Assembly (NCBI GenBank): GCA_035763885.1
Contig: DASUAH010000081.1
Coordinates: 1 to 49,033 of the forward strand
Length of the DNA: 49,033 nucleotides
Direction: 5' to 3'
Source of the DNA: Gemmatimonadales bacterium
GTDB lineage: Bacteria; Gemmatimonadota; Gemmatimonadetes; Gemmatimonadales; GWC2-71-9
The position numbers and the translations under genes were made by a program. Shown one piece after another: positions 1,018-36,031 of the stretch. The notes under the pieces are model-generated. The model saw nothing but the letters and a program-made list of their open reading frames with translations, was not told where the DNA came from and made no database searches. The stretch's first letter is position 1. Each line of letters starts with the position of its first letter.

Positions 1018-1925
1018 ACCTGTTCGCCGTCGAGGCCGAGGGCCTCGGCCGGGACTACGGACCCGTTCGGGCGCTCGATGCCCTCACGCTCCGGATCCCG
1101 CCCGCGGCCCTCGTCGGTCTGCTGGGGCCGAACGGCGCCGGGAAGACCACCACGATGCTGCTCCTCGCCACGCTGCTCGCGCCGACCCGCGGCGCGGCCC
1201 GCGTCTTCGGGCACGACGTCACCCGCGAGCGGCGGGCCGTGCGCCGGCGACTGGGCCTGGTCTTCCAGGAGCCGAGCGTGGACGGGCTGCTGACGGTCGA
1301 GGAGAACCTTCGTTTCGCCGCGAGGCTGGCGGGCCTGGGGGGCCGGCGCGCAGTGGGAGCGGTGCGCCAGACGCTCCAGCGGACCGGCCTGCTCGACAAG
1401 GCCCGGCAGCCGGCGAAGCAGCTCTCCGGCGGGTGGCGGCGCCTGGCGGACATCGCGCGCGCCACGCTCCACCAGCCGGATCTGCTGGTCCTCGACGAGC
1501 CCACCGTCGGGCTCGACCCGGAGCACCGCGACCGCATGTGGAGCCTGCTGGACGCCGAGCGGCGGGAGCGCGGAGCGACGATCCTCTTCTCCACCCACTA
1601 TCTCTCCGAGGCCGAGCCCAGCGACCGGGTGGTCATGCTGGCGCGGGGAACCGTCGTGGCCGACGGCACTCCGGCCCAGCTTCGCGCCGCGATCGGCGAC
1701 GAGGTGGCGGAGATCGAGGGCGAAGGAGCGGAGGCGCTGATCGGTGTTCTGGAAGCCGCGGGCCTGATGCGGACGCGACAGCGATCCGGCCGCGGCTGGC
1801 GCGTGGGCCTCAGCGGCGGCCACGGCCGCGCGGGCGAGCTGGCCGCCGCGGCGCCCGGAATCTTTCGGCTCGCCTTCCGCCCTCCCACGCTCGAGGACGT
1901 CTACTTCGCCAGGACGCAGGCATGA
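1014..1925 (+). CDS. ABC transporter ATP-binding protein (ABC-2 exporter type)
   Basis: Walker A GPNGAGKTT, signature LSGGWRRL, Walker B LLVLDEPTVGLD. The GTG start overlaps the pqqE stop (GTGA at 1014-1017). Confidence 0.9.
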   Translation: MNLFAVEAEGLGRDYGPVRALDALTLRIPPAALVGLLGPNGAGKTTTMLLLATLLAPTRGAARVFGHDVTRERRAVRRRLGLVFQEPSVDGLLTVEENLRFAARLAGLGGRRAVGAVRQTLQRTGLLDKARQPAKQLSGGWRRLADIARATLHQPDLLVLDEPTVGLDPEHRDRMWSLLDAERRERGATILFSTHYLSEAEPSDRVVMLARGTVVADGTPAQLRAAIGDEVAEIEGEGAEALIGVLEAAGLMRTRQRSGRGWRVGLSGGHGRAGELAAAAPGIFRLAFRPPTLEDVYFARTQA

Positions 1926-2713
1926 GTGCGGCGGTCACCGCATGGGGCATCGTGGCCCGCGACCTCACCCGCAGCGTGCGGCAGCGGAGCCGCCTCGTCG
2001 CCGGCGTGGCGCGACCGTTCGTCTGGGTGCTGCTGGTCGGGGTCGGGTTCAACTCCATCGCCCGCGTGGGGGGCGGCCTCTCCTACCACGCCTACGCCTA
2101 CCCCGGCGGCGTCGTGATGGGGGCGCTCTTCGGCGGCATGCTGACCGCGATCTCCACCGTGTACGACCGCGAGTTCGGAATGCTGCGGCTCATGCTCGCG
2201 AGCCCGTCGGGCGCGCCGGCGCTGCTCGCGGGACGCACCATCTCGGCGACGCTCGTGGGGGTGTTGCAGGGAGGGATCGTGCTCGGGTGCGCACCCCTGC
2301 TGACCGGCGTCGGCGCGACCGAGGTCGCACGCGGGCTCGGAGCCCTGCTCCTCGCGGCTTTCACGAGCGCCACCCTCGGCCTGCTGGTCGCGGCGCGACT
2401 CACGTCGGTGGAGAACTTCGGCGGCGTGATCAACGTCGTGCTCTTTCCGCTGCTCTTCGTGAGCGGCGCCCTCTACCCGACCGCGGGGATGCCGCCGCCG
2501 CTGCGGGCGCTCGCCCGGGTGAACCCGGTCACCTACATGGTGGATCTCATGCGACATGCATTCGGCCAGCCCGTGGAGTTCACCGCGCTGACCGATGCGG
2601 CGGCCATCCTCGCAACAGGGGTGGTCGCGATCGCGGTGGCGGCCGCGCTGTTCGATCCGGAGCAGCGATTCATCGGGCGGGGTCGCGGGACGACGGCCGA
2701 CAGTCGCCCGTAG
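1922..2713 (+). CDS. ABC-2 type transporter permease
   Basis: The ATG at 1922 overlaps the ATPase stop (ATGA). About 263 aa with multiple hydrophobic spans (VWVLLVGVGF, VVMGALFGGML, VVLFPLLFVSGALYP), typical of ABC-2 permeases. Confidence 0.85.
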   Translation: MSAAVTAWGIVARDLTRSVRQRSRLVAGVARPFVWVLLVGVGFNSIARVGGGLSYHAYAYPGGVVMGALFGGMLTAISTVYDREFGMLRLMLASPSGAPALLAGRTISATLVGVLQGGIVLGCAPLLTGVGATEVARGLGALLLAAFTSATLGLLVAARLTSVENFGGVINVVLFPLLFVSGALYPTAGMPPPLRALARVNPVTYMVDLMRHAFGQPVEFTALTDAAAILATGVVAIAVAAALFDPEQRFIGRGRGTTADSRP

Positions 2714-3566
2714 GCGGCCGGTCGAAGGCCGCCGGCCGCTCCACCACGATACGCTGCTCCACCCGCGACTGCACCGGATGCCGGAGCCGCCCGCCGGGCG
2801 GGATGACGGTCTCGATCACCAGCCGCCGGTCGCGCCGCACCAGCCCTTCGCGCCGGTGCCACACGAACCGCTCCTCTTCTCGCGTGCTCTGCCGGGCCGA
2901 GGCCGGCGCGGTGTCGCCGCGCACGGTGACGCTGTCCGCGGTGCGGGTGACCGTGACGGCGAAACGGAGCAGCGTGTCGGCGGCGACGCTGTCGGGAAGG
3001 CGCCGGATCTCGAGGCCGTGGCCGTCGCCCCAGGCCGCGCCGACGGCGAGCGGCGCGGGGGGCAGGCGCGGGAGCAGATCCGCCGCGGCGCGGGAGAGAT
3101 CGATGACCTCCCCCACCCCGTCGGGGACGAAGGGCCGCGCGAGCTCGGTGTACCCGCCGTCAGCGGTCAGTACGCCCCGGTAGCGGCCGCCGATGATCCC
3201 GTCGGTGTCCGGCGCCAGCGTCCCTTCGGGCGTGCTCCGCCGTACGGCGAGGGAGTCGAACCACGCCTCGACCCGGATCGTGTCCCCCGGCGCCGGCCGG
3301 GCCCGCAGCGCCCACAGCCCGGCGACGTCGACGCCCTCGCGTCGCTCGCGCCCGGCGAGACCGGTCAGAATGTCGGAGCGCTGAACATAAGCGAACGCCG
3401 CGCAGTCGAGCTGTGCGGCGTCGTAGCGGACCTGGGCCGCGGCGCCACCGGCGCCGGCCACTGAGAGAATGGTGAGCGCGAGGGCCGGCTCAGCCGGTCG
3501 CGACCTGCTCCGCCGCGCCGACCGGACGAAACTCCAGATGCGCCGCGCGCACCATGACATAGTCAT
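2670..3566 (-). CDS. hypothetical protein, probably secreted
   Basis: 298-aa ORF with plausible protein composition after a signal-like segment (RRSRSRPAEPALALTILSVAGAGGAAAQ). The only canonical starts (ATG 3566 or 3560) overlap the upstream small gene by about 70 nt, so the start is uncertain. I recognise no family. Confidence 0.5.
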   Translation of the reverse strand: MTMSWCARRIWSFVRSARRSRSRPAEPALALTILSVAGAGGAAAQVRYDAAQLDCAAFAYVQRSDILTGLAGRERREGVDVAGLWALRARPAPGDTIRVEAWFDSLAVRRSTPEGTLAPDTDGIIGGRYRGVLTADGGYTELARPFVPDGVGEVIDLSRAAADLLPRLPPAPLAVGAAWGDGHGLEIRRLPDSVAADTLLRFAVTVTRTADSVTVRGDTAPASARQSTREEERFVWHRREGLVRRDRRLVIETVIPPGGRLRHPVQSRVEQRIVVERPAAFDRPPTGDCRPSSRDPAR

Positions 3567-3723
3567 GCGGCGTCTTGAGCCGCGCCAGCCGCTCGCCGGA
3601 CAGGTTCACGGTGCGCTTGCGCATCCCCGGCCACAGGGGGACCACCTCGTACCACGTGTGCCATTTGAGCTCGGGATATTGCCGGCGGTGCTGCTCCTTC
3701 ACTCGCGCCTCGAAGCGCGCCAT
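3490..3723 (-). CDS. hypothetical small protein (77 aa)
   Basis: The ATG at 3723 is preceded by GGAGG with 5-nt spacing (CCCGGAGGACGCATG on the minus strand). W/Y/K/H-rich, non-repetitive sequence (MARFEARVKEQHRRQYPELKWHTWYEVVPLW...) that does not look like a GC-frame artifact. Confidence 0.5.
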   Translation of the reverse strand: MARFEARVKEQHRRQYPELKWHTWYEVVPLWPGMRKRTVNLSGERLARLKTPHDYVMVRAAHLEFRPVGAAEQVATG

Positions 3724-3876
3724 GCGTCCTCCGGGAGAAGGTGCTCGCGGCGGGGGCCTCGGGATAAGCTGCAAACCGTACCGCCGGCGCACAAGCTGTT
3801 CTCGATTCGAACACCCGGAAAGTGACGAGATTCTCGACACTCGGCACTGCAGCTTCCTTCACCGGGATCCCGCCGC

Positions 3877-4596
3877 CTACCGGGCCGCACGGATCGCCGC
3901 GGGCACATTTGTGACTATGCCCGCCACCCCCCGGCTCCACAGCCGGCGAGCGAGCGCGGGCGCGTCCACCGTCCACACGTGCACGGGGCAGCCGAGCCGG
4001 CGCGCCGCGGCGACGAACCATCTCGTGGGCACCGGCAGCCCGCGGTGCCGCAGCGGCACCGAGAGCAGGCCGTAGCCCACGGTCGCAGGCGGGCGCCGGA
4101 GCGCCGACGACCAGTAGAGCCGCGCGATGTCTTCGCCGCAGGCGCCGGTCACGAACGGCGCGCCGCGAAACGCGCCCAGCGCGCACGTCTCCTCGGCGGC
4201 GACCACGCAGCGTGCGGCCGCGCCCCGGGCGAGCAGCACGTCCCGCACGGCGGTCTGCGCGGCGGCGTCCTTCACGTCGAGCAGCAGTGGGGTGCGCGGG
4301 AAGGCCGCCAGCACGTCGGCGAGGGAAGGCACGCCGGCGGCCTCAAGCTCGACCATGGTGAAGGCGGCCACCGGGCCCCGAAGCGGCGTGGTGCGATCCA
4401 GGGTGGGATCGTGCAGCGCGACCGGCACCCCGTCCCGGCTCAGACGCAGGTCCAGCTCGAGCGCGTCGGCGCCCTGCCGGACGGCCAGCTCGAAGGCGGC
4501 GAGGGTGTTCTCGGGAGCATCGGCCGAGGCGCCGCGGTGGGCGATCACCGGGCGGGCCGAGAGGTCGAGCAGCGCATGCACGCTATAATATGGCAT
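3877..4596 (-). CDS. glycerophosphodiester phosphodiesterase (GDPD family)
   Basis: VIAHRGASADAPENTLAAFELAVRQGADALELDLRLSRDGVPVALHDPTLDRTT is the canonical GDPD N-terminal motif block. Alternative start at ATG 4620. Confidence 0.85.
   Translation of the reverse strand: MPYYSVHALLDLSARPVIAHRGASADAPENTLAAFELAVRQGADALELDLRLSRDGVPVALHDPTLDRTTPLRGPVAAFTMVELEAAGVPSLADVLAAFPRTPLLLDVKDAAAQTAVRDVLLARGAAARCVVAAEETCALGAFRGAPFVTGACGEDIARLYWSSALRRPPATVGYGLLSVPLRHRGLPVPTRWFVAAARRLGCPVHVWTVDAPALARRLWSRGVAGIVTNVPAAIRAAR
4584..4589 (+). promoter_or_regulatory. perfect TATAAT hexamer 5 nt upstream of the amidohydrolase ATG (candidate -10 of a leaderless transcript)
   Basis: cgcTATAATatggcATG. A perfect -10 consensus stands out in GC-rich DNA. 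There is no convincing -35 (gaggtc/gtcgag). Confidence 0.3.
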
Positions 4597-5914
4597 GCTC
4601 TCACGACAGCTCGTCTTCATGGCCTGCGTCCTGGCGCCGGCCGCCCCGGCAGCCGCTCAGACCACTCCTCCATCGCGCACGCTGATCCGCGCCGGCCGGC
4701 TCATCGACGGCCTGGCCGATGCTCCTCGGCGCGAGCAGGGCATTCTGATCGAGAACGGGCGGGTGGCGGCGGTCGGCCCGTATTCCGAGGTCGCGACGCG
4801 CGCGGGCGAAGCCACGCGCGTGGATCTGGGCGCGATGACGGTGCTGCCGGGGCTCATCGACGCTCACACCCACCTCCTGCTTCAGGGCGACATTACCGCC
4901 GCCGAGTACGACGAGCAGGTGCTCAAGGAGTCGATCCCCTACCGGGCGATCCGCGCCACCGTCGCGGCCCGGAGGGCGCTCGACCGGGGCTTCACCACGC
5001 TGCGAGACCTCGAAACCGAGGGCGCGATGTACGCCGACGTGGACGTGAAGACGGCGATCGAGCGAGGGATCGTGCCCGGCCCACGCCTCTTCGTTGCCAC
5101 GCGCGCGTTCAGCGCCACGGGGATGTATCCGCTCCTCGGTTACTCGTGGGAGCTCTCGCTGCCCACCGGCGTGCAGATCGTGGACGGGGCCGACGCGATC
5201 CGGAAGGCGGTGCGCGAGCAGGTGAAGTACGGCGCCGACTGGATCAAGGTGTACGTCGACCGGCGGTACCACCTCGCCGCCGACGGCCGGCTCCGGAGCT
5301 GGGTCAATTTCACCGACGAGGAGCTCAAGGCCTTCGTGGAGGAGGCGCACCGGCTGGGCCGGCGGGCGGCGGCCCACGCGATCGGCTGGGACGGCATCGA
5401 CGCGGCGCTGCGCGCCGGCTTCGACACGATCGAGCACGGGCACGGGCTCACCCCGGACCTCATCGACCGCATGGTGCGCCAGAAGGTGTTCTGGTGCCCG
5501 ACCATCTACGTGACCCATTACGTGGCGCCGGGACGCGGCGGCATCTGGCCCAAGATGATCGAGCTCGAGCGGCTGGCGTTCGGGGAGGCGCTCAAGCGCG
5601 GCATGCTTCCGCTCATCGCCAACGGCAGCGACGCCGGCGGCTACGCGTGGGACGAGCCGCTGGCCAGGGAGCTCGCCCTGATGGTGGAGTACGGCATGAC
5701 GCCCGCGCAGGCGATCCGCGCGGCGACCAGCGTCGCGGCCCGGCTTCTCGGCCAGGAGGACCAGCTCGGCGCGGTGGCCCCGGGTCGCCACGCCGACCTG
5801 ATCGCGGTGGCGGGCGACCCGCTGGGCGACATCAGCGAGCTGCAGCGGGTCCGCTGGGTGATGAAGGGTGGGGTCGTGTACGCGTCGGGGGAGGCGAGGG
5901 CGCATGGACCCTGA
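4595..5914 (+). CDS. amidohydrolase family metallohydrolase, exported
   Basis: N-terminal signal peptide MLSRQLVFMACVLAPAAPAAAQ. HxH metal motif LPGLIDAHTHLLLQG. Length and C-terminal ADLIAVAGDPL block are typical of the amidohydrolase superfamily. Confidence 0.85.
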   Translation: MLSRQLVFMACVLAPAAPAAAQTTPPSRTLIRAGRLIDGLADAPRREQGILIENGRVAAVGPYSEVATRAGEATRVDLGAMTVLPGLIDAHTHLLLQGDITAAEYDEQVLKESIPYRAIRATVAARRALDRGFTTLRDLETEGAMYADVDVKTAIERGIVPGPRLFVATRAFSATGMYPLLGYSWELSLPTGVQIVDGADAIRKAVREQVKYGADWIKVYVDRRYHLAADGRLRSWVNFTDEELKAFVEEAHRLGRRAAAHAIGWDGIDAALRAGFDTIEHGHGLTPDLIDRMVRQKVFWCPTIYVTHYVAPGRGGIWPKMIELERLAFGEALKRGMLPLIANGSDAGGYAWDEPLARELALMVEYGMTPAQAIRAATSVAARLLGQEDQLGAVAPGRHADLIAVAGDPLGDISELQRVRWVMKGGVVYASGEARAHGP

Positions 5915-5929
5915 GCCTGAGCCGCCGCG

Positions 5930-7216
5930 GTGATGGACCGCCGCCGCTTCACGGAGCTCTGCGCCGGCGTGCTCGGAGGCGCCTCCTGGCGGCCGTGGGG
6001 CGAGCGGGCGACGCGCCCGGCGGACGAAGACCCGTGTGCGCTCCCCGGCCCGATCCGGTCGCTCACGCCCATGACTGCCGGGATCGCGCCGATCGACGAT
6101 CAGGAGCGCCAGGCCCGCCTGGAGCGGGCGCGCCGGCTCATGGCCGAGAACGAGATCGATGCGCTGGTCCTGGAGCCGGGCTCGAGTCTGTTCTACTACA
6201 CCGGTGTCCGCTGGCAGCTCTCCGAGCGCCCCTTCGTCGCCGTGCTGCCCGCTCGCGGCGAGCTGGCGTATGTCGGTCCGGCCTTCGAGGAGGCGCGGGC
6301 GCGCGAGCTCATCCGGCCCGCCGACGAGCTGCGCGTGTGGCAGGAGGACGAGAGTCCCTACGCGCTGATCGACGGGATTCTCCGGGATCGCGAGGTCGTC
6401 ACCGGCCGCCTCGGCGTCGAGGCGCAACTGAGATTCTTCCTGCTGGATGGCCTCCGGCGCGAAGCGCCCGCGGCGGATTACGCGCTCGCGGACGCGGTCA
6501 CCACCGGCTGTCGCATGGTCAAGTCGCCGGCCGAGCTCGCGCTCATGCAGCGGGCGAGCGACATCACGATCGCCGGGTTCCGCGCCGCGCTCGCTACCCT
6601 GCGTGAGGGCATGACGCAGCGGGAGCTGGAGCGCAACATGCTCGCGGCGCTCGAGCGGTTGGGGGGCTCGGACCCCTGGGTGCTCGTCGGCTTCGGCGAG
6701 CACTCCGCCTATCCGCACGGCAGCGTGCAGCCGCAGCGGCTCCGGGCACGCGACATCGTGCTCATGGACGCCGGTTGCGCGGTGCAGGGGTACCAGGCCG
6801 ACATCACCCGCACGACCGTCTTCGGCAAGCCGACGCGCCGGCAGGTCGAGGTCTGGAACCTGGAGCGGCGGGCGCAGGACGCGGCGTTCGCGGCGGCGCA
6901 GGTCGGCGCCACCTGCGGGTCGGTGGACGCGGCGGCCCGGCGGGTGATCACGGACGCGGGCTTTGGTCCGGATTACCTGGTGCCGGGCCTCCCGCACCGC
7001 ACGGGGCACGGCATCGGTCTCGACGGGCACGAGTCACCCAACTTCGTTCGCGGCAGTACCACGCGGCTGCGCCCGGGCATGTGCTTCAGCGACGAGCCGA
7101 CGATCGTCATCTACGGCGAGTTCGGCATCAGGCTCGAGGACTGCCTGTACCTCACCGAGAGCGGACCGCGGTTTTTCTCGCGGCAGAGCGCGGCCATCGA
7201 CCGCCCCCTCGGCTAG
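5930..7216 (+). CDS. M24 family Xaa-Pro peptidase with twin-arginine-like signal
   Basis: HRTGHGIGLDGHESP and GIRLEDCLYLTE metal-ligand blocks of M24B/creatinase-fold peptidases. The N-terminus MMDRRRFTELCAGVLGGASW resembles a Tat signal. Start is GTG 5930 or ATG 5933. Confidence 0.85.
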   Translation: MMDRRRFTELCAGVLGGASWRPWGERATRPADEDPCALPGPIRSLTPMTAGIAPIDDQERQARLERARRLMAENEIDALVLEPGSSLFYYTGVRWQLSERPFVAVLPARGELAYVGPAFEEARARELIRPADELRVWQEDESPYALIDGILRDREVVTGRLGVEAQLRFFLLDGLRREAPAADYALADAVTTGCRMVKSPAELALMQRASDITIAGFRAALATLREGMTQRELERNMLAALERLGGSDPWVLVGFGEHSAYPHGSVQPQRLRARDIVLMDAGCAVQGYQADITRTTVFGKPTRRQVEVWNLERRAQDAAFAAAQVGATCGSVDAAARRVITDAGFGPDYLVPGLPHRTGHGIGLDGHESPNFVRGSTTRLRPGMCFSDEPTIVIYGEFGIRLEDCLYLTESGPRFFSRQSAAIDRPLG

Positions 7217-9450
7217 GGAAAGCGCATCGTGGCGAGGAGCCGCTTGAACCGCGGGTCCGCACGCAGCGGGTCGAGCCTCGGGTCCACCTGGAGCAGCGCC
7301 ATCCAGTGGGTCCGTTCGGCGTGGGCCTTCTCCAGCCAGACGATCGCGTCGTCGAGCCGGCCCAGTCCCCCGTGCACCACGGCGATGTCGTAGGACGAGA
7401 CGTACCGGCGCTGCGCCATGGCGGTGAGCTCGTCGAGCACAGTCTGCGCCTCCGCGCGGCGCCCGGACAGCGCAAGGCCGTGGGCCAGAAAGGCGAGATC
7501 CACCGGCTCGCGGTTGGACAGCCGCACCGCCTCCGCGAACTCGACCGCCGCCTCGGCCGGGGCGCCGGCCTGCTCCAGCGACAGTCCCAGCCACAGGTGC
7601 GACACGCCGAGATCGGGATCGATCGCCAGCGCGCGCCGCTGCTGCGCGATGGCCTCGCCGTACCGCCGGGCGAAGTAGTACCCCCAGCCGAGCGCCGCGT
7701 TCTTGATCGGCGACAGCGGATCGAGGTTCACCGCCTGCCAGAACTCCGACAGCGACTCGTCGGCCCGCCCGAGGATGGCAAGGCAGTTCCCGTACCACTG
7801 GTGGGCCGTGGCGTAGCTCGGGTTCAGCTCGATCGCGCGGCGGAACCCCTGCTCGGCACCGGCCCAATCCCAGTCGAAGTACATCTTGACGTACGCGAAC
7901 GCGGGATGCGCTTCGGCGAGGGCGGGATGCAGCCGGAGTGCGGCCTGGGCCGCCGCCTTCGCCCGGGGGAACGCTTCAGTGGGCGGCAACGCCGTGTAGA
8001 ACCCGAGGAGCACATAGGAATCCGCCAGCCCGACCTGCGCGAGCGCGTACTCCGGATCGCGTTCCAGCGCCTGCTCGAAGTAGCGGAGCCCCTTCCGGAG
8101 CGCGTCCTCCGATCGCCGGTTCCACAGCTGGCGCCCCTTGAGGTACAGCGTGTAGGCCTCGAAGTCGGCGGTGGGAGGCTTCACCAGCGCCGCCCGCAAG
8201 GGCCCCAGCAGCCGCACCTCCAGCGCGCGCACGATCCCGCGCGAGATCTCGTCCTGGATCGCGAACACGTCCTCCATCTCGCGATCGAACGTGTCGGACC
8301 AGAGCTGGTAGCCGTTGGCGACATCGACGAGTTGCACGGCGACGCGCAGCCGGCGCCCCGCCCGACGTACGCTTCCCTCCAGCACGCTGGCGACGTTCAG
8401 CTGTCCGCCGATGGCGCGGACGTCCTGCTGCCTGCCCTTGAACGCGAAGACCGATGTGCGGGACACCACGTGGACGCCGGGAAGCTTGGCCAGCGCGTTG
8501 ATCAGCTCGTCGGTCATCCCGTCCGCGAAGAACTCGTTTTCGGGATCGGCGCTGAGATTGGCAAAGGGCAATACCGCGATGGAGGGGGGCGCCGCTCGCG
8601 CGGCGACCACCTCCGTGGTCGCCGCCGGGGTGAGCGCCCGGCCGAACTCCGCGGCGGTGGGGAAGCGATCGTCGGGGCTCCGGGCCAGCGCCCGCAACAC
8701 TGCCTGCTCGATCGAGTGCGGCACGCCGTCGGCGCCGGTGCGCAGCGGCGGCACTGGATCGGTGAAGCGCCGGGCCATCACCGCCTGGACAGTGGGTCCC
8801 GTGAACGGCGGGCGGCCGGCCAGCATCTCGTAGAGCACGCAGCCGAGCGAATAGATGTCGCTCCGGCCGTCGATCTCCCGCTCCCCGGCGGCCTGCTCGG
8901 GACTCATGTACGCCGCGGTGCCCACCACCAGGCCGGTCGCCGTGAGCTGCTCGTCGGCGGCCGCGACCGCGCGCGCCACCCCGAAATCGGCGAGCAGGGC
9001 GTGCTGCTCGGCAACCAGGATGTTCTCCGGCTTCACGTCGCGGTGGACGACGCCGCGCCGATGGGCGTAGTCCAGCGCATCGGCGACCTCGCGCGCGAGG
9101 CGGAGCGCCGGGTCGAGCGGCAGGCGCGATTCGCGCGCGAGCCTGTCGCGCAGGCTCTCGCCCTCCACGTAGGGCATCGTGTACCACAGGTGCCCCGCCG
9201 CGTCGCCGGACTCGAACACGGGGAGGATGTGGGGGTGCTGGAGGCGGGCCGCGAGCCGGATCTCGCGGAGGAACCGCTCGGGACCGAGGCTTGCCGTGAG
9301 CTGCGGATGCAGCACCTTGAGCGCCACGAGGCGTTCGTGCCGCACGTCGCGCGCGAGATATACCGTGGCCGTACCGCCGCGCCCCAGCTCATGCTGCAGC
9401 ACGTAGCGATCCTGGAGCGCTTGGGCGAGCGACGAGACGACGGGATGCAC
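7213..9450 (-). CDS. Ser/Thr protein kinase with central TolB-N-like domain and C-terminal TPR repeats
   Basis: GRGGTATVYLA...ALK, HRDVKPENIL, DFGVA and SPEQ kinase subdomains. Then PSIAVLPFANLSADPENEFFADGMTDELI, then a long TPR-like region (YALAQVGLADSYVLLG, AIELNPSYATAH...). GTG start. Confidence 0.9.
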   Translation of the reverse strand: MHPVVSSLAQALQDRYVLQHELGRGGTATVYLARDVRHERLVALKVLHPQLTASLGPERFLREIRLAARLQHPHILPVFESGDAAGHLWYTMPYVEGESLRDRLARESRLPLDPALRLAREVADALDYAHRRGVVHRDVKPENILVAEQHALLADFGVARAVAAADEQLTATGLVVGTAAYMSPEQAAGEREIDGRSDIYSLGCVLYEMLAGRPPFTGPTVQAVMARRFTDPVPPLRTGADGVPHSIEQAVLRALARSPDDRFPTAAEFGRALTPAATTEVVAARAAPPSIAVLPFANLSADPENEFFADGMTDELINALAKLPGVHVVSRTSVFAFKGRQQDVRAIGGQLNVASVLEGSVRRAGRRLRVAVQLVDVANGYQLWSDTFDREMEDVFAIQDEISRGIVRALEVRLLGPLRAALVKPPTADFEAYTLYLKGRQLWNRRSEDALRKGLRYFEQALERDPEYALAQVGLADSYVLLGFYTALPPTEAFPRAKAAAQAALRLHPALAEAHPAFAYVKMYFDWDWAGAEQGFRRAIELNPSYATAHQWYGNCLAILGRADESLSEFWQAVNLDPLSPIKNAALGWGYYFARRYGEAIAQQRRALAIDPDLGVSHLWLGLSLEQAGAPAEAAVEFAEAVRLSNREPVDLAFLAHGLALSGRRAEAQTVLDELTAMAQRRYVSSYDIAVVHGGLGRLDDAIVWLEKAHAERTHWMALLQVDPRLDPLRADPRFKRLLATMRFP

Positions 9451-16890: not shown

Positions 16891-17208
16891 GTGGCCGACT
16901 GCTGCCAGGTCACCACCACGGTCGACACGCGCGAAACGGCGGAGCGGATCGCCACCGCGCTCGTCGAGGAGCGGCTCGCGGCCTGCGCCCAGGTGGCCGG
17001 TCCCATCGCCAGCACCTATCGCTGGCGCGGCGCCGTCGAGCACGCGACCGAGTGGCACTGCCACCTGAAGACGACGCGCGCCCGTGTGCCCGCCCTCGAG
17101 GCGCGGGTCCGCGAGCTCCACCCGTACGACGTCCCCGAGATCATCGCACTGCCGATCGTGGCGGGGCATCCCGCGTATCTGGCCTGGATCGAGGACTCCG
17201 TCCGATGA
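16891..17208 (+). CDS. cutA: divalent-cation tolerance protein CutA
   Basis: 105 aa. ...LVEERLAACAQVAGPIASTYRWRGAVEHATEW...LHPYDVPEIIALPI...YLAWI matches the CutA1 fold signature. GTG start. Confidence 0.85.
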   Translation: MADCCQVTTTVDTRETAERIATALVEERLAACAQVAGPIASTYRWRGAVEHATEWHCHLKTTRARVPALEARVRELHPYDVPEIIALPIVAGHPAYLAWIEDSVR

Positions 17209-18605
17209 CCGCGCCGCCACTCCCCCCGACCCCGCCCACGCCCGAGCTGCTGTACCTGCTGTCGGGCGACGAGGAGGACTTCGCGGCCGCCTGCGCGGAG
17301 CTCCTGCCGGCGGACATCGCGGAGGCACTCAACGGCCTGCCGGTCGCGGCAGCGATCCGGGTGCTGACCGCGCTTCCCTTCCATCGGGCGGTGCAGGTGC
17401 TGGACGAGCCGCAGCTCCTGCGGCGCGGCGAGCTCATCGGCGGACTCGAGACCGCGCGCGCGGTGCCGCTCATCGAGGCGATGTCGGCCGACCAGCAGGT
17501 CGATCTGTTCCGCGAGCTCAGCGACGAGGCCCGTGCGCGGCTCATCCACGTGCTCGCCGCGCCCACCCGCGACGCCCTCGCTCTCCTGCTCCGGTTTCCG
17601 CCCCACACCGCCGGCGGCATCATGACGACGGAGTTCGTCGGTGTGCCGCCCACCTGGACGGCGGACCAGGTGAAGACGTACATCCGCGAGGTCGCCGCGG
17701 GCAAGGAGACGGTTTACGCCATCTACGTCCTGGAGCCCAGGGACCAGCGGCTGGTGCGGGTGGTCTCGCTGCGCGACATCATGCTCGCCGAGCCGAACCA
17801 GCCGGTGCTTCGGGTAGGAGAGACGCGGAAGCCCGTCACGGTGGGGCCGCTCACCGACCGGGAGGAGGTGGCGCGGCTGATCTCCAAGTACGATCTGCTC
17901 GCCATCCCGGTGCTGGACGACGCCGGCCACGTGCTCGGCATCGTCACGGTGGACGACGTGATCGACGCCCTGGTCCGGGAGTCCACCGAGGACGTACAGA
18001 AGTTCGGCGGCATGCAGGCGATCGAGGAGCCGTACACCCAGATCGGCCTTCCCGAGATGATCCGGAAGCGGGCCGGCTGGCTCTCCGCGCTGTTCCTCGG
18101 CGAGATGCTCACCTCGCTCGCGATGCAGGAGTTCGAGCACGAGATCAGCCGGGCCGTCGTGCTCGCGCTGTTCATCCCGCTCATCATCAGCAGCGGCGGC
18201 AACTCGGGCTCCCAAGCGACGTCGCTGATCATCCGCGCGCTCGCGCTCCGCGAGGTGACACTCCGCGACTGGTGGCGGGTGGCGCTCCGCGAGTTCCCCG
18301 CGGGGCTGGCGCTCGGCTCCATCCTCGGGGCGATCGGGGTGATCCGGATTCTCCTGTGGCAGTGGCTGGGCTGGTACGACTACGGCGCGCACTACCTGCT
18401 GGTGGCGCTCACGGTCGGGCTGGCGCTGGTCGGCGTGGTGCTGTTCGGCTCGCTGGCGGGATCGATGCTGCCGTTCGTGCTGCGGCGGCTGGGGTTCGAC
18501 CCGGCCAGTGCGTCGGCGCCGTTCGTGGCGACGCTGGTGGACGTGACCGGGCTCGTGATCTACTTCAGCGTCGCGCTCATACTGCTCCGGGGGACTCTGC
18601 TCTGA
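17205..18605 (+). CDS. mgtE: magnesium transporter MgtE
   Basis: The ATG at 17205 overlaps the cutA stop (ATGA). MgtE N-domain, CBS pair (LLAIPVLDDAGHVLGIVTVDDVIDAL), and TM domain with PLIISSGGNSGSQ. Confidence 0.9.
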   Translation: MTAPPLPPTPPTPELLYLLSGDEEDFAAACAELLPADIAEALNGLPVAAAIRVLTALPFHRAVQVLDEPQLLRRGELIGGLETARAVPLIEAMSADQQVDLFRELSDEARARLIHVLAAPTRDALALLLRFPPHTAGGIMTTEFVGVPPTWTADQVKTYIREVAAGKETVYAIYVLEPRDQRLVRVVSLRDIMLAEPNQPVLRVGETRKPVTVGPLTDREEVARLISKYDLLAIPVLDDAGHVLGIVTVDDVIDALVRESTEDVQKFGGMQAIEEPYTQIGLPEMIRKRAGWLSALFLGEMLTSLAMQEFEHEISRAVVLALFIPLIISSGGNSGSQATSLIIRALALREVTLRDWWRVALREFPAGLALGSILGAIGVIRILLWQWLGWYDYGAHYLLVALTVGLALVGVVLFGSLAGSMLPFVLRRLGFDPASASAPFVATLVDVTGLVIYFSVALILLRGTLL

Positions 18606-19668
18606 GGCTGGCGAGCCACCGGCCGATCGCCGGGAGCGGCAGCACGTGGGCCGCGGCCGCCCGCTGCACCGCCGCCCGGGGCATTCCGTAGACGACGCAG
18701 GTCTCCTCGCTTTCGGCGATGGTCACGCCGCCGCCCGTCCGGATGGCGGCCATCCCGTCCGCGCCATCGTCTCCCATCCCCGTGAGCAGGACGCCCAGCA
18801 CCCGGCCCGGCCGGGCCCGCGCCGCGGAGTGCATCAGCACGTCGACGCTCGGGACGTGGCGGGCGTGCGCCGGCTCGCGCGACAGCACCACCGACAGGCT
18901 GTCGGTCACGCGCAGGTGAATGCCGGCGGGTGCGATCACGACCCGTCCCGGCGCCAGCCGCTCGCCATCCCCCGCTTCGCCGACGCGAAGGCGGCAGTGC
19001 GCGTTCAGCCGGGTGGCGAACGGCAGGGTGAAGCCCGGCGGCATGTGCTGCACGATGGCGATGGGAAGCGGAAAGTCGCCCGGCAGCCCCTCGAGCAGCT
19101 GCTGGAGGGCGGCCGGTCCGCCGGTGGAGGCCCCGATGACACACAGATCGACGGTCAGACGGTCGGACGGCCAGCCGGCCGGCGTTTCGGGAGTGTCGCG
19201 GCCCTCCGCCGCTCCGGCCCGGCCGGCCGGCCGGCCGGGCGACCGTCCGACCGTCTGACCGTCGGGCCGTCTGCCAGGCCGCGCCAACACCTTCACTTTC
19301 TCTCTGAGCTCCCGTCCGAACCCGTCCAGGTCCATCAGGCCGAATCGGGACTTGTCCACGAAGTCGGCGGCGCCGGCGGCGAGTGCCTCGATCGTCGCCT
19401 CTGCGCCCTCCCGGGTGTGGGCCGACAGCATGACGACGGGCAGCGCCGGATCGCCCTGCCGCAGGCGCTTGAGGACCGCCAGGCCGTTCATCCCGGGCAT
19501 GTCCAGATCGAGGGTGACCAGGTCCGGCCGAACCCGCGGAATCAGCGCGAGCGCTTCGGCGCCGCTCGCCGCCTCGCCCACCACGCGCACACCCGCCTCG
19601 GCGGCCAGCACCTTGGCCGTCGCCTTGCGCGCGAAGGCCGAATCGTCCACCACGAAGACCCGGATCAC
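18577..19668 (-). CDS. cheB: chemotaxis response regulator protein-glutamate methylesterase CheB
   Basis: REC domain (VFVVDDSAFARK..., DLDMPGMNG) plus methylesterase domain (VIGASTGGPAAL, VQHMPPGF, LTGMGDDG). The GTG start overlaps the cheR stop (GTGA). The linker carries the palindromic repeat listed next. Confidence 0.9.
   Translation of the reverse strand: MIRVFVVDDSAFARKATAKVLAAEAGVRVVGEAASGAEALALIPRVRPDLVTLDLDMPGMNGLAVLKRLRQGDPALPVVMLSAHTREGAEATIEALAAGAADFVDKSRFGLMDLDGFGRELREKVKVLARPGRRPDGQTVGRSPGRPAGRAGAAEGRDTPETPAGWPSDRLTVDLCVIGASTGGPAALQQLLEGLPGDFPLPIAIVQHMPPGFTLPFATRLNAHCRLRVGEAGDGERLAPGRVVIAPAGIHLRVTDSLSVVLSREPAHARHVPSVDVLMHSAARARPGRVLGVLLTGMGDDGADGMAAIRTGGGVTIAESEETCVVYGMPRAAVQRAAAAHVLPLPAIGRWLASLRAESPGAV
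19150..19274. repeat. palindromic octamer-repeat element (CAGACGGY family) inside the cheB linker
   Basis: gacggtcagacggtcggacgg (19150-19170) is the exact reverse complement of ccgtccgaccgtctgaccgtc (19243-19263), a 21/21 match. The arms are made of (C/T)NGACGG(T/C) octamers. One extra octamer lies at 19267-19274, and the centre holds a short (CGGC)4 tract. Confidence 0.85.
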
Positions 19669-27096: not shown

Positions 27097-28451
27097 CCGC
27101 GCCGGGCGCGGGCCTCCGCCTTCCCCACCCCCTGATCCTCCTGCTCGCGTGCCTCGCCGTCGCCGCGCTCGCGAGCTGGATCGTTCCCGCCGGCCGGTAC
27201 GAGCGCCGAGAGGACAGCGTCACCGGGCGCACCGTGGTGGTGCCCGGCACGTTCCACCGAGTCCAGCCGGCCCCGGTCGGACCGCTCCAGGCTGCCGTCG
27301 CCGTGCCGAAGGGCCTGGCCGACGCGGCGTCAGTGGTCTTCCTCGTGTTTCTCGTGGGCGGCGCGTTCGCCGTGGTCGAGCAGACGGGGGCGCTCACCGG
27401 CGCAGTCGCCTGGCTGGTGCGCGCGCTGGGGCGCCGAGAGGCGCTCATGATCCCCCTCGCCAGCGCGGCGTTCGCGCTGGGCGGCCTCGCGCAGAACATG
27501 CAGGAGGAGATCATCGCGTTCGTGCCGGTCCTCCTGCTGCTCGCTCGGCGCCTCGGCTTCGACGCGCTCACCGCCGTGGCGATCAGCCTCGGCAGCGCCG
27601 CCGTGGGCGCGGCGTTCAGCCCGATCAATCCCTTCCAGGTCGGCATCGCCCAGCAGCTCGCCCAGCTGCCGCCTCTCTCAGGGGGGCTCTTCCGGACCGC
27701 GGTCCTTCTGCTCGCATTCGGCATCTGGGTGGCGGGCACGATGCGGCACGCGCGACGGATCCACGACCATGCCGGCGGCGGCCGCGTGGCCGACACTCCC
27801 ACGGCCGTAGCGGCGGGGCGGCACGCGGTGATCCTGGGGCTGGTGGCCGCATCGTTCGTGCTGCTTGTCGTGGGGATCCTGCGCTTCGGCTGGGGATTCG
27901 ACGAGCTCTCGGCGGTCTTCTTCGTGATGGGACTTGCCGCCGGGCTCACGGCAGGACTCGGGTGGGCGGGTACCGCGGAGGCGTTCGTGACCGGGTTCCG
28001 GTCGATGGCGTGGGCCGGGATGCTCGTCGGGTTCGCCCGGGCGATCTACGTCGCTCTCGAGGAGGGCCGCATCCTCGATAGCCTCGTGCACGCGCTCTTC
28101 ACTCCGCTCGAGCACCTCCCGGTTGCGCTGTCAGGGCTGGGAATGATGGCCGCCCACACGGTGGTGCACGTGCCGGTGCCGAGCGTGAGCGGCCAGGCCG
28201 TGCTCACGATCCCGATTCTCGTGCCGGTGTCCGATCTGCTAGGAATGTCGCGGCAGGTGACGGTGCTCGCCTACCAGTACGGGGCGGGGCTGTGCGAGAT
28301 CGTCACCCCCACGAACGGGGCAATGATGGCCATCCTCGCGGCGGCAGGGGTGCCGTTCGGGCAATGGCTCCGGTTCGTGCTGCCGCTCTGGGCGGCGCTG
28401 CTCGGGCTGGGTGCGGTGGCGGTGGTGGCGGGGATCGCGCTCGGGGTGTAG
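27093..28451 (+). CDS. YfcC / DcuC-type (C4-dicarboxylate anaerobic carrier family) membrane transporter
   Basis: Collinear with E. coli YfcC as I recall it, e.g. SGQAVLTIPILVPVSDLLGMSRQVTVLAYQYGAGLCEIVTPTNGAMMA versus [35 protein letters not shown].... Polytopic membrane protein. Confidence 0.85.
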   Translation: MTAPGAGLRLPHPLILLLACLAVAALASWIVPAGRYERREDSVTGRTVVVPGTFHRVQPAPVGPLQAAVAVPKGLADAASVVFLVFLVGGAFAVVEQTGALTGAVAWLVRALGRREALMIPLASAAFALGGLAQNMQEEIIAFVPVLLLLARRLGFDALTAVAISLGSAAVGAAFSPINPFQVGIAQQLAQLPPLSGGLFRTAVLLLAFGIWVAGTMRHARRIHDHAGGGRVADTPTAVAAGRHAVILGLVAASFVLLVVGILRFGWGFDELSAVFFVMGLAAGLTAGLGWAGTAEAFVTGFRSMAWAGMLVGFARAIYVALEEGRILDSLVHALFTPLEHLPVALSGLGMMAAHTVVHVPVPSVSGQAVLTIPILVPVSDLLGMSRQVTVLAYQYGAGLCEIVTPTNGAMMAILAAAGVPFGQWLRFVLPLWAALLGLGAVAVVAGIALGV

Positions 28452-28452
28452 C

Positions 28453-28583
28453 CGGACGGTCAGACGGCCAGACGGTCAGACGGCCGGCCAGACGGCCGGT
28501 CGCGGTAGCTCGGGGGCGACCTGCTGGTGCCTGACCGTCAGACCGTCTGGCCGTCTGACCGTCTGACCGTCCGGCCGTCCGCC
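28453..28583. repeat. palindromic octamer-repeat element (CAGACGGY family) between convergent yfcC-like and trxC
   Basis: Left arm CGGACGGT CAGACGGC CAGACGGT CAGACGGC ..CAGACGGC. The right arm is the inverted array (ctgaccgtcagaccgtctggccgtctgaccgtctgaccgtccggccgtcc). cagacggccagacggtc (28461-28477) pairs perfectly with gaccgtctggccgtctg (28541-28557). Confidence 0.85.
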
Positions 28584-29014
28584 AAGGCCTCGAGCACCGG
28601 CATATCCGCCAGCCCCACGTGCCTCCCCGTCTCGCGGCCGCCCCGGAACGCAATCAGGGTGGGGAGGCCCTTGATGCCCAGCCGGCGTGGAGTCACCGGA
28701 TTTGCGTCGGTGTCGAGCTTGAGGACCAGCGCATCTCCCACTCGGGCCAGCGCGAACTCATCCAGCGTCGGCGCCATCATCCGGCAGGGCCCGCACCAGT
28801 CGGCATAGAAATCGACCAGCACCGGCACGCTTGCACCTTCGATGATCCGATCGAAGTCCTGGTCCGTAACCTTGGTGGGGCGATCGAGCCGGATCGGCCG
28901 GCCGCACTCGGCGCACTTCGGCCCTGCATTCAGTCGGGCCAGGTCCACCCGGTTCAGGGTGTCGCAGAACGCGCAGCGCACCGTTACGTAGCGCCCGGAA
29001 GCTGGCTGGGTCAT
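28538..29014 (-). CDS. trxC: thioredoxin 2 (TrxC-type, N-terminal zinc finger)
   Basis: CAFCDT...CAECGRP zinc-finger pair followed by VLVDFYADWCGPCRMMAP. The last about 14 codons (DGRTVRRSDGQTV*) and the stop codon lie inside the repeat element. Confidence 0.85.
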   Translation of the reverse strand: MTQPASGRYVTVRCAFCDTLNRVDLARLNAGPKCAECGRPIRLDRPTKVTDQDFDRIIEGASVPVLVDFYADWCGPCRMMAPTLDEFALARVGDALVLKLDTDANPVTPRRLGIKGLPTLIAFRGGRETGRHVGLADMPVLEALADGRTVRRSDGQTV

Positions 29015-31123: not shown

Positions 31124-31698
31124 TGGCCGAGCTGGCGTCGGCGCTCGCCCGGTGGCTAGTGGTCGCCGCGCTCGGCTACGCCGCCGTCGTGGCCATCACC
31201 CATTGGGCGGTGCGCGACCGGCGCCTCAACCCGTTCGGCGCGTGGCCGCGCTTCGTGCGCCGGATCAGCGACCCGGTCCTGCGCCCGCTGGAGCGCCGGA
31301 TCGTGCGGGCGGGTGGCATGCCCCAGAGCGCCCCCTGGTGGCTCTTCGGCCTCGTGGTCGTCGGCGGGCTGTTGCTGGTCAGCGGCGTGAACTGGGCCAT
31401 CGGATTCGCCTACGAGCTGCGTATGCTCTCGGGGGCGGGGCCGCGCGTCTGGCTCATCGAGCTGGTGTCGTGGACCTTCCGGATCCTCATGTTTGCGCTG
31501 CTGGTGCGCGTGATCGCGTCCTGGTTCGGGATCTCGCCCTACCGGAAGTGGATGCGTCCCGTGGTATTCCTCACCGACTGGATCCTGGGTCCGCTTCGCC
31601 GGATTCTCCCGCCGTTCGGGCCGCTGGACCTGAGCCCGCTCGTCGCCTACTTCCTGTTGTGGGTCGCGCGCCAGCTGGTGATCGGGGCGCTGGTGTGA
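31120..31698 (+). CDS. yggT: YggT family membrane protein
   Basis: Two YGGT-like repeats (FVRRISDPVLRPLERRI... and FLTDWILGPLRRILPPFGPLDLSPLVAYFLL). The start (GTG 31120 or ATG 31123) overlaps the upstream stop. Confidence 0.8.
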   Translation: MMAELASALARWLVVAALGYAAVVAITHWAVRDRRLNPFGAWPRFVRRISDPVLRPLERRIVRAGGMPQSAPWWLFGLVVVGGLLLVSGVNWAIGFAYELRMLSGAGPRVWLIELVSWTFRILMFALLVRVIASWFGISPYRKWMRPVVFLTDWILGPLRRILPPFGPLDLSPLVAYFLLWVARQLVIGALV

Positions 31699-31715
31699 GA
31701 CGGCCAGACGGCCAG
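31697..31715. repeat. solo half-copy of the CAGACGGY octamer repeat
   Basis: GAGACGGC CAGACGGC CAG, beginning inside the yggT stop codon (tgTGAgacgg). No inverted partner nearby. Confidence 0.6.
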
Positions 31716-31722
31716 TAAGCCA

Positions 31723-32165: not shown

Positions 32166-32183
32166 GAGAGCGACAACCGAGCT

Positions 32184-32230
32184 CGTGGCGATTTGCGGCT
32201 ATTGCGGCCACGTTAAACAACCAGCTAAAA
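32184..32230 (+). ncRNA. structured 5' leader element upstream of metH (possible SAM-II/V-like pseudoknot riboswitch; class unverified)
   Basis: Hairpin CGTGGC-gatttgcggctattgcg-GCCACG, then gttaaacaaccAGCTAAAA. The 3' AGCU(AAA) can pair with loop UUU..GGCU. The CGAUUU and AGCUAAAA strings recall SAM-II conserved elements, but the fold is not canonical. Confidence 0.25.
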
Positions 32231-32237
32231 CGCCTCT

Positions 32238-32271
32238 CCCCGGGGACGTTTTGGCCCCGGGGCTTTCGTTT
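32238..32271 (+). terminator. intrinsic terminator/attenuator in the metH leader
   Basis: CCCCGGGG-acgttttgg-CCCCGGGG followed by cTTTCGTTT. It ends 10 nt before the metH GTG and overlaps the approach to the RBS GGGAG (32272-76). Confidence 0.45.
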
Positions 32272-32281
32272 GGGAGTAACC

Positions 32282-36030
<3,749 letters not shown>

Positions 36031-36031
<1 letters not shown>

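Follow-up and report, generated by a model that had tools for sequence, protein, structure and literature searches.

A palindromic octamer-array element encoding the interdomain linker of CheB in a Gemmatimonadales bacterium

How does a palindrome made of repeated octamers come to lie in frame inside a chemotaxis gene, and what keeps it there? We addressed this question for the cheB gene of a Gemmatimonadales bacterium, which is located on a stretch of 49,033 nucleotides (nt) of contig DASUAH010000081.1 (the whole analysed stretch is hereafter called the window; 71.7% G+C). The gene (18577-19668, minus strand) encodes a protein of 363 residues composed of a receiver domain (REC), a linker and a methylesterase domain, as judged from the open reading frame (ORF), Pfam (Response_reg at residues 4-107, CheB_methylest at residues 177-350), an alignment to Salmonella CheB (PDB 1A2O) and the synteny of its orthologues. 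Its nearest relatives are the CheB proteins of Gemmatimonadales metagenome-assembled genomes (MAGs). We found that the palindrome makes up the tether between the two domains, that the orthologous site carries palindromes of different sequence across a clade, and that the element belongs to a repeat family strongly enriched in Gemmatimonadota.

The cheB palindrome and its orthologous sites

Including its imperfect outer arms, the element spans 19137-19276 (minus strand, codons 131-178), as delimited by an inverted-repeat search, RNA folding, AlphaFold2 and the 1A2O alignment. The outer arms (19137-19183 and 19230-19276) are 47 nt each and 83% complementary. Within them, inverted-repeat analysis defined two perfect arms. 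Arm A (19149-19170) reads CGACGGTCAGACGGTCGGACGG on the plus strand, forms the 3′ arm in the mRNA and encodes ...PSDRLTVD, while arm B (19243-19264), its exact reverse complement, forms the 5′ arm and encodes PDGQTVGRS. The original prediction had placed a perfect inverted repeat of 21 bp at 19150-19170 and 19243-19263. This repeat is real, lies within cheB and is built of octamers, as had been proposed, but its arms are 22 nt long. They consist of GACGGNCN octamers, three to four per arm, in frame with cheB, and variant units are mirrored between both arms. Translation confirmed the encoded peptide as RRPDGQTVGRSPGRPAGRAGAAEGRDTPETPAGWPSDRLTVD followed by LCVIGASTGGP. The perfect arms enclose a spacer of 72 nt (19171-19242, minus strand), which by codon arithmetic corresponds exactly to codons 143-166 and which holds inner stems in the fold. 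The central CCGG/CGGC run noticed before was located at 19217-19240, where (CCGG)n pairs with 19170-19183. The GACGGTC core of the unit is itself a near-palindrome (GAC-N-GTC), and an array is thus self-complementary at six of eight positions. The unit CCGTCTGA is also the core of the Neisseria DNA uptake sequence, which is likely a coincidence; uptake-like and Chi-like roles were considered and then dropped.

To judge the palindrome against the base composition of the window, we used second-order Markov models of the window and scored inverted repeats with loops of up to 150 nt. In 100 runs the longest perfect inverted repeat had a mean length of 12.3 nt and a maximum of 17 nt, against the 22 nt observed. 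The two-unit motif GACGGTCNGACGG, with at most one mismatch, was found 15 times in the window compared to 1.7 times expected, and none of the shuffles reached 15. Furthermore, the mRNA strand of the cheB element folds with -117 kcal/mol (z = -7.3), and 0 of 200 dinucleotide shuffles folded as well. The long mRNA hairpin originally suggested is thus supported.

The cheB locus was also found in contigs of four independent soil-metagenome runs, with at least 99% identity, but in no RNA-seq run. These contigs break inside the arms, and the read depth in the same runs is 27-67 on the arms versus about 5 on the flanks. Because four runs carry the locus, contigs end in the arms and the depth of the arms is raised, we conclude that the palindrome is genuine and no artefact of one assembly, and that its arms are multicopy in those four soil communities. 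Such palindromic elements break short-read assemblies.

The position of the palindrome within the protein is well defined. Its perfect part begins at the third base of codon 135 and ends with the first base of codon 174 (P135-D174). The alignment to Salmonella CheB covers residues 2-131 and 174-352, and leaves residues 132-173 unaligned. In the AlphaFold2 model the last REC helix comprises residues 114-129, followed by coil (130-174) and the first catalytic strand (175-180), and the predicted local distance difference test score (pLDDT) is below 50 at residues 133-164; the linker is thus predicted to be disordered. The palindrome therefore encodes the entire REC-methylesterase tether and is no addition to a linker. 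Since it is the whole linker, from the end of the REC helix at about residue 129-131 to the strand at 175, its excision would leave almost no tether.

To follow the site through related genomes, we scanned metagenome contigs for CheB relatives, which gave two close orthologues among the 80 loci listed, and took further orthologue DNA protein by protein. In total, 13 orthologous loci were read, representing 12 distinct genomes (L112 and L197 encode an identical linker). All 13 show the gene order cheY-cheA-cheW-MCP-HEAT-cheR-cheB, as in the window, where cheB is likewise the last gene of the operon, and in all of them cheB is convergent and overlapping with mgtE-cutA. The orthologous linkers are about as long as that of the window, yet cannot be aligned with it. 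Eight of the 13 loci carry a palindrome at the same site. In L192 and L194 it is built of the unit GGCGGGCA, with arms of 30-31 nt that are 94-97% complementary. L193 uses the unit GATGAGCG in arms of 43 nt that are 95% complementary (z = -13.6), and variant units are mirrored in both of its arms. In L200 one arm consists of GATGAGCG and the other of GGAGGAGC (z = -6.8), and L195 has a purine-rich unit with a period of about 10 (z = -4.5). L202 belongs to another sub-clade, with a CheB 72% identical to the window protein, and has the unit GGCGGRCN in arms of 51 nt (z = -10). The palindromes of L196 and L201 are degenerate. The hairpin z-scores of L192-L195, L200 and L202 range from -4.5 to -13.6. 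L197, L112, L198, L199 and L203 have no hairpin (z about 0). Apart from the linker array, the orthologous loci contain no period-8 array within about 10 kb of cheB.

The earlier suggestion that a block of 38 codons had simply been inserted into the linker is not supported, since the palindrome is the whole linker and the syntenic orthologues are equally long; the block is not missing from them, and long linkers are kept.

Comparisons between close relatives showed how this site changes. The genes of P0003, P0005 and P0013, whose proteins are 95-96% identical outside an unalignable linker, can be aligned nearly position by position, apart from some 120 nt that end exactly at the GAC-CTC-TGC-GTC (DLCV) codons. 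Among P0006, P0010 and P0011, which are 98-99% identical, the linkers differ by indels of 5-10 residues. L192 and L194 on the other hand share one element including its spacer, despite only 88% identity elsewhere, which indicates that change at the cheB site is episodic and not clock-like. At its left edge L200 has retained GGGGCGGGCAGG, a stub of the GGCGGGCA type, which suggests that the interior of an older array was exchanged for a newer array, although the replacement step itself is inferred. All these data show that the cheB site held such a palindrome across a clade while its sequence turned over fast. They also show that the gene can survive decay of the hairpin, and that some lineages keep a long linker without a hairpin.

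The repeat family in and beyond the window

The original prediction had viewed the stretch as a dispersed palindromic repeat of the REP (repetitive extragenic palindromic) or MITE (miniature inverted-repeat transposable element) kind that lies in frame in a coding linker, and many further copies in related genomes bear this out. We scanned one genome per bacterial or archaeal species for the pattern GACGGYCAGACGGYCNGACGG and obtained at least 111 loci. Among the 111 matches listed, at least 64 are loci of Gemmatimonadota MAGs, and the rest are mostly single arrays in actinobacteria. Moreover, in 17 of the listed loci an inverted array lies no more than 250 nt past a forward array, and all 17 belong to Gemmatimonadota. 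A typical member consists of (GACGGNCN)3-19, followed by about 20-250 nt of spacer and an inverted array; the members have no common head or core, and their spacers are unrelated. The units are contiguous without spacers, which rules out CRISPR.

The 64 Gemmatimonadota loci (451 kb) contain 162 arrays of period 8, whereas any other period between 5 and 12 reaches at most 54. This second value is that of period 7, compared to at most 24 arrays for periods 5, 6 and 9-12, and heptamer-based relatives of the octamer family may therefore exist. The unit has a flavour in each genome: GACGGTC(A/G) in most (the mainstream unit, GACGGTCR), GACGGCCN in two and GACGG(G/A)CA in one. Other octamer units, namely GGCGGGCA, GGGCGGTC and GGCGGACA, were recovered as by-catch in Gemmatimonadota loci. 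In the searchable literature we found no paper describing these octamer-array palindromic elements. The family is strongly enriched in Gemmatimonadota, previously undescribed and a member of no named family.

Array positions were called with our own codon log-odds gene finder, which was trained on called genes of related loci and reproduces the genes of the window. In total, 59 of 89 array groups away from contig edges are intergenic, and the arrays typically fill the whole space between the genes. In 35 of 57 cases the distance from stop codon to array lies between -5 and +10 nt. In L015, for example, the element sits exactly between tuf and rpsJ.

In addition to these intergenic copies, arrays were found in frame in a range of proteins. 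An array (GACGGTCA)n is free of stop codons in all frames and encodes the cyclic hydrophilic peptide DGQTVRRS in each of them, and for this reason it can reside in frame in linkers and loops; the complementary array reads PSDRLTVR unless TGA falls in frame. Array-encoded peptides lie between or outside the domains of the Pfam-confirmed proteins UvrD (between the helicase C-terminal domain and the tudor domain), S9 peptidase, E2 acyltransferase (in the linker between the lipoyl and E3-binding domains), AcrB, ThiC (at the N-terminus), PfkB, ImuB and DnaE2. The array sites of dnaE2 are orthologous in three genomes, with differing units. Cassettes of imuB and dnaE2 account for four of the 64 Gemmatimonadota loci listed (L074, L099, L103 and L111), with two to four in-frame arrays per cassette, located at sites that different genomes have in common. 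Four loci in this error-prone polymerase cassette are far above the expectation for one locus per genome. The arrays thus add variable segments to otherwise conserved marker proteins. They also create spurious small ORFs: a protein-database search with the array-encoded peptides returned 18 short, domain-less ORFs and was uninformative on the breadth of the family.

A second family member is present in the window itself, between the convergent dcuC-like and trxC-like genes (28453-28583; identified from its arrays and fold). It comprises a forward array (28455-28485) and an inverted array (28533-28581), folds with -103.6 kcal/mol (z = -7.4) and starts 2 nt past the stop codon of the DcuC-family gene, which ends at 28451. 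The element at this position had been described as the same type in intergenic DNA. The type was assigned correctly, but the location is not purely intergenic: the final 14 codons and the stop codon (28538-28583) of the thioredoxin-2-like gene (28538-28981, minus strand; gene calls and Pfam) come from the right arm, which encodes the C-terminal tail DGRTVRRSDGQTV. As the last 14 residues and the stop codon are element-encoded, the C-terminus of this protein has been remodelled by the element.

Motif search and gene calls also revealed a two-unit remnant, TGA-GACGGCCAGACGGCCAG / GACGGCCA, at 31696-31716 (plus strand). It starts inside the TGA stop codon of a yggT-like gene, ends 7 nt before a DUF167 gene and is either a minimal or a decayed member of the family. 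A period-8 stretch at 33319-33345 (plus strand), consisting of two copies of GCCGCCCC and a variant, encodes PPRRPATPP in metH, within the segment linking the homocysteine domain to the pterin domain. It was rejected as a family member: it has no inverted partner and is probably an ordinary, unrelated proline-rich linker. Directly upstream of metH (32282-36031), a SAM_alpha riboswitch family match (SAM-II, RF00521) was found at 32175-32248 (plus strand). It scores 42.6 bits (gathering score 36) and occurs in a Gemmatimonadales genome, although alpha-proteobacteria gave the family its name. This is the sole match to Rfam 15 in the window, and no Rfam 15 family matches either of the two elements.

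The search for a mobilising gene, prompted by the original prediction, came back empty: none of the 47 genes predicted for the 49-kb window is a transposase, RAYT or IS200-like gene, and 49 kb cannot settle the question. No target-site duplication is visible at the cheB element or in L001, L011, L015 and L035, where the array edges are ragged. Between the arrays of the family no transposase was identified; the only gene seen there is 23S_rRNA_IVP, in L022 and L029. This gene encodes a four-helix-bundle protein (PF05635) and lies between forward and inverted arrays about 450 nt apart (L022 2249-2808, L029 579-1230), a layout reminiscent of an rRNA intervening sequence enclosed in a long stem.

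The spacers sometimes hold a second, unrelated palindrome. A second repeat, approximately TCATCCCGAGCGNAGCGAGGGATCT, recurs together with its inverse in the element spacers of L004, L011, L014, L028, L033 and L035, which suggests nested or composite elements. In L019, at least 10 GACGG(G/A)CA arrays are found within an 8-kb stretch (1832-7980), and several of these arrays lie directly upstream of, or run into, ORFs starting with the prepilin-type sequence GFTLIEILVV, as read by eye.

Turnover and possible selection at the cheB site

We consider it probable that the cheB stretch is a long-resident, fast-turning-over copy of the Gemmatimonadota-enriched palindromic family, which is tolerated as a disordered tether. 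In this model the ancestral cheB linker would have been colonised by an element, or an array would have arisen there. Slippage would expand, contract and homogenise the arrays, and one arm would be recopied from the other by fold-back or template-switch repair. Such arm-to-arm copying would explain the mirrored variant units in both arms of the window element and of L193. Occasionally, the whole element would be replaced by recombination or gene conversion. Purifying selection on CheB would let pass only in-frame, stop-free versions, the product of which would act only as a flexible tether. The mRNA hairpin would be tolerated because translating ribosomes unwind it, and the model does not require the hairpin to have a particular function. 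The window copy may be a comparatively recent renewal, because it shares the mainstream GACGGTC(A/G) unit with the second element of the window.

Several points weigh against this explanation. With no mobilising gene among the 47 genes of the window and no target-site duplications at the elements read, mobility is deduced only from dispersal. The unit types do not follow the CheB tree, which calls for recombination or repeated replacement, neither of which was directly observed. Hairpins persist or recur at one site across CheB proteins that are about 72% identical, and the dnaE2 sites behave likewise; this could equally mean that the structure is selected. Finally, the gene calls behind the position statistics are home-made, and the search pattern biases the sample of loci towards GACGGYC-type arrays.

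The most serious competitor is a hairpin that is itself functional and selected, with pairing and not sequence being what matters. Such a structure, in the mRNA or the DNA of cheB, would separate the parts of the gene that code for the two domains. It could pause ribosomes to allow co-translational folding of REC, serve as a site for RNase III or the degradosome, or block antisense transcription from mgtE. The last idea draws on the genomic context. The mgtE gene (17205-18605, plus strand; gene calls) is convergent with cheB, and the 3′ ends of both genes overlap by 29 nt (18577-18605) in the window and by about 41 nt in the orthologous loci (e.g. L192 11043-11083), an arrangement kept across the clade. 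Therefore, a terminator could not be accommodated between the two genes in any locus. A terminator scan found no canonical terminators in the region, and elsewhere the family sits at terminator positions, right after stop codons. Moreover, eight genomes show strong or residual pairing at the cheB site with at least five unrelated unit sequences, which resembles massive compensatory change. However, five loci of four genomes (L203, L197/L112, L198 and L199) are free of the hairpin with gene and synteny intact, and arm-to-arm copying explains mirrored arms without selection. Of the features of an intrinsic terminator, the G+C-rich hairpin is present and the U-tract is absent: no T-run follows the arms of either element, and the terminator scan was empty there (2 sites in 13 kb compared to 2.2 expected). 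The hairpin also lies about 545 nt beyond the mgtE stop codon and has no Rfam match. On balance we regard a selected hairpin as unlikely.

More doubtful still is the idea that Gemmatimonadales conserve the hairpin rather than the sequence as a general RNA or DNA device, keeping a stem-loop in the linker coding sequence of cheB, dnaE2, imuB and other genes. If true, the device could halt translation or be processed at the domain boundary, or it could be a switch based on 8-nt slippage or spacer inversion, and the octamer arrays would keep regenerating perfect stems.

A recent one-off insertion of a MITE- or REP-like element into the cheB linker of this genome would fit the mainstream GACGGTC(A/G) units, which are those of the second element and of most Gemmatimonadales loci, and also the arms that are perfect over 22 nt, suggesting a young copy. 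We nevertheless hold it to be highly unlikely, since the palindrome is the entire linker, orthologues have palindromes at the same codons, and neither an empty site nor a target duplication was seen. It is possible, however, that an older resident element was replaced or converted by a mainstream-type copy, and this is included in the explanation that we prefer.

Could the palindrome act as a switch? Slippage by 8 nt would truncate CheB to a CheY-like REC domain, and recombination between the 22-nt arms would flip the 72-nt spacer as an intragenic inverton, yielding two isoforms of the linker. Intragenic invertons are a described phenomenon. The unit length is no multiple of 3 and arrays range from 3 to 19 units across loci; the spacer covers exactly 24 codons, and its reverse complement has no in-frame stop codon. 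An open antisense frame is expected anyway at 72% G+C, and there are only three to four units per arm. Furthermore, no indels, strand changes or joints were detected at the cheB element in the contigs of the four soil runs, in which minority variants are hidden. A switch is, in our judgement, very improbable. An ordinary low-complexity Pro/Gly/Arg linker with a palindrome due to chance or G+C composition, for which the high G+C content of the window and the compositional bias of linkers in the CheB family would speak, is refuted by the shuffled folds, by arms longer than any simulated one and by the recurrence of octamer arrays at other positions of the window and in dozens of related genomes.

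The cheB site offers a natural series with near-identical flanks, differing units, and perfect versus decayed stems. This series can separate self-renewal of the palindrome from selection on RNA structure.

Comparison with known repeat systems

The elements constitute an undescribed family in a widespread, little-studied soil phylum and have an unusual build, with expandable octamer arrays serving as hairpin arms. Several known systems share part of these properties. Contingency loci are tetra- to heptanucleotide repeats in ORFs of Neisseria and Haemophilus. Like these, the arrays described here can be in-ORF tandem repeats with a unit (8 nt) that is indivisible by 3, so that a change in unit number shifts the frame. 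In contrast, our arrays come in inverted pairs and are mostly extragenic. The contigs of the four soil runs, in which minority variants are hidden, showed no length variants.

MITEs such as ERIC, Correia and BOX are non-autonomous inverted repeats without a transposase that are occasionally fused in frame to host ORFs (PMC10969869). The inverted arrays likewise flank a non-coding spacer without a transposase, but no target-site duplication and no fixed length was seen, and no parent insertion sequence was identified. REP, BIME and REPIN sequences, which are mobilised by RAYT transposases, are short, G+C-rich, multicopy palindromes that are mostly extragenic just 3′ of genes, vertically persistent and of species-specific flavours, in all of which they are similar to the present family. 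However, each REP consists of one imperfect palindrome, about 20-40 nt long, that carries a conserved head, whereas the arms here consist of 3-19 octamers. Moreover, no RAYT is found among the 47 genes of the window, and in-frame intragenic copies are common here.

The nearest architectural precedent that we found comes from Geobacter metallireducens. Its genome contains paired 'global regulator binding sites' (classes 1-3) and elements with four GGGACCG repeats, which were annotated in 2009, without a test, as possible IHF/HU sites (PMC2700814). These sites are multicopy pairs on opposite strands with variable spacing, each site having three to five tandem repeats of seven, eight or nine nucleotides. 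A related heptamer family has both intergenic and intragenic members. They differ in their consensus (GTTGCTYN and others), in phylum and in having insertion sequences at a fixed distance; in-frame coding of linkers and turnover at orthologous sites are not described there.

In the way the elements work, the Rickettsia palindromic elements (RPEs) come closest. These are dispersed palindromes of about 100-150 bp, many of which lie in frame in unrelated housekeeping genes, encoding a hydrophilic peptide while the protein is kept (Ogata et al. 2000, summarised in PMC10969869). Several differences set the two apart. The descriptions point to no sequence relationship, and the arms of the elements described here are tandem arrays of short units, which RPE arms are not. 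Copies of RPEs are conserved in sequence, whereas here the repeat unit at one site changes between close relatives. The hosts of RPEs are obligate intracellular alpha-proteobacteria, in contrast to the free-living Gemmatimonadales. What both share is in-frame residence in unrelated ORFs at structurally tolerated positions. The octamer-array elements thus provide a free-living parallel to the selfish palindromes in coding genes of Rickettsia, in which the interdomain linkers of CheB, E2, DnaE2, ImuB and UvrD can be written by elements.

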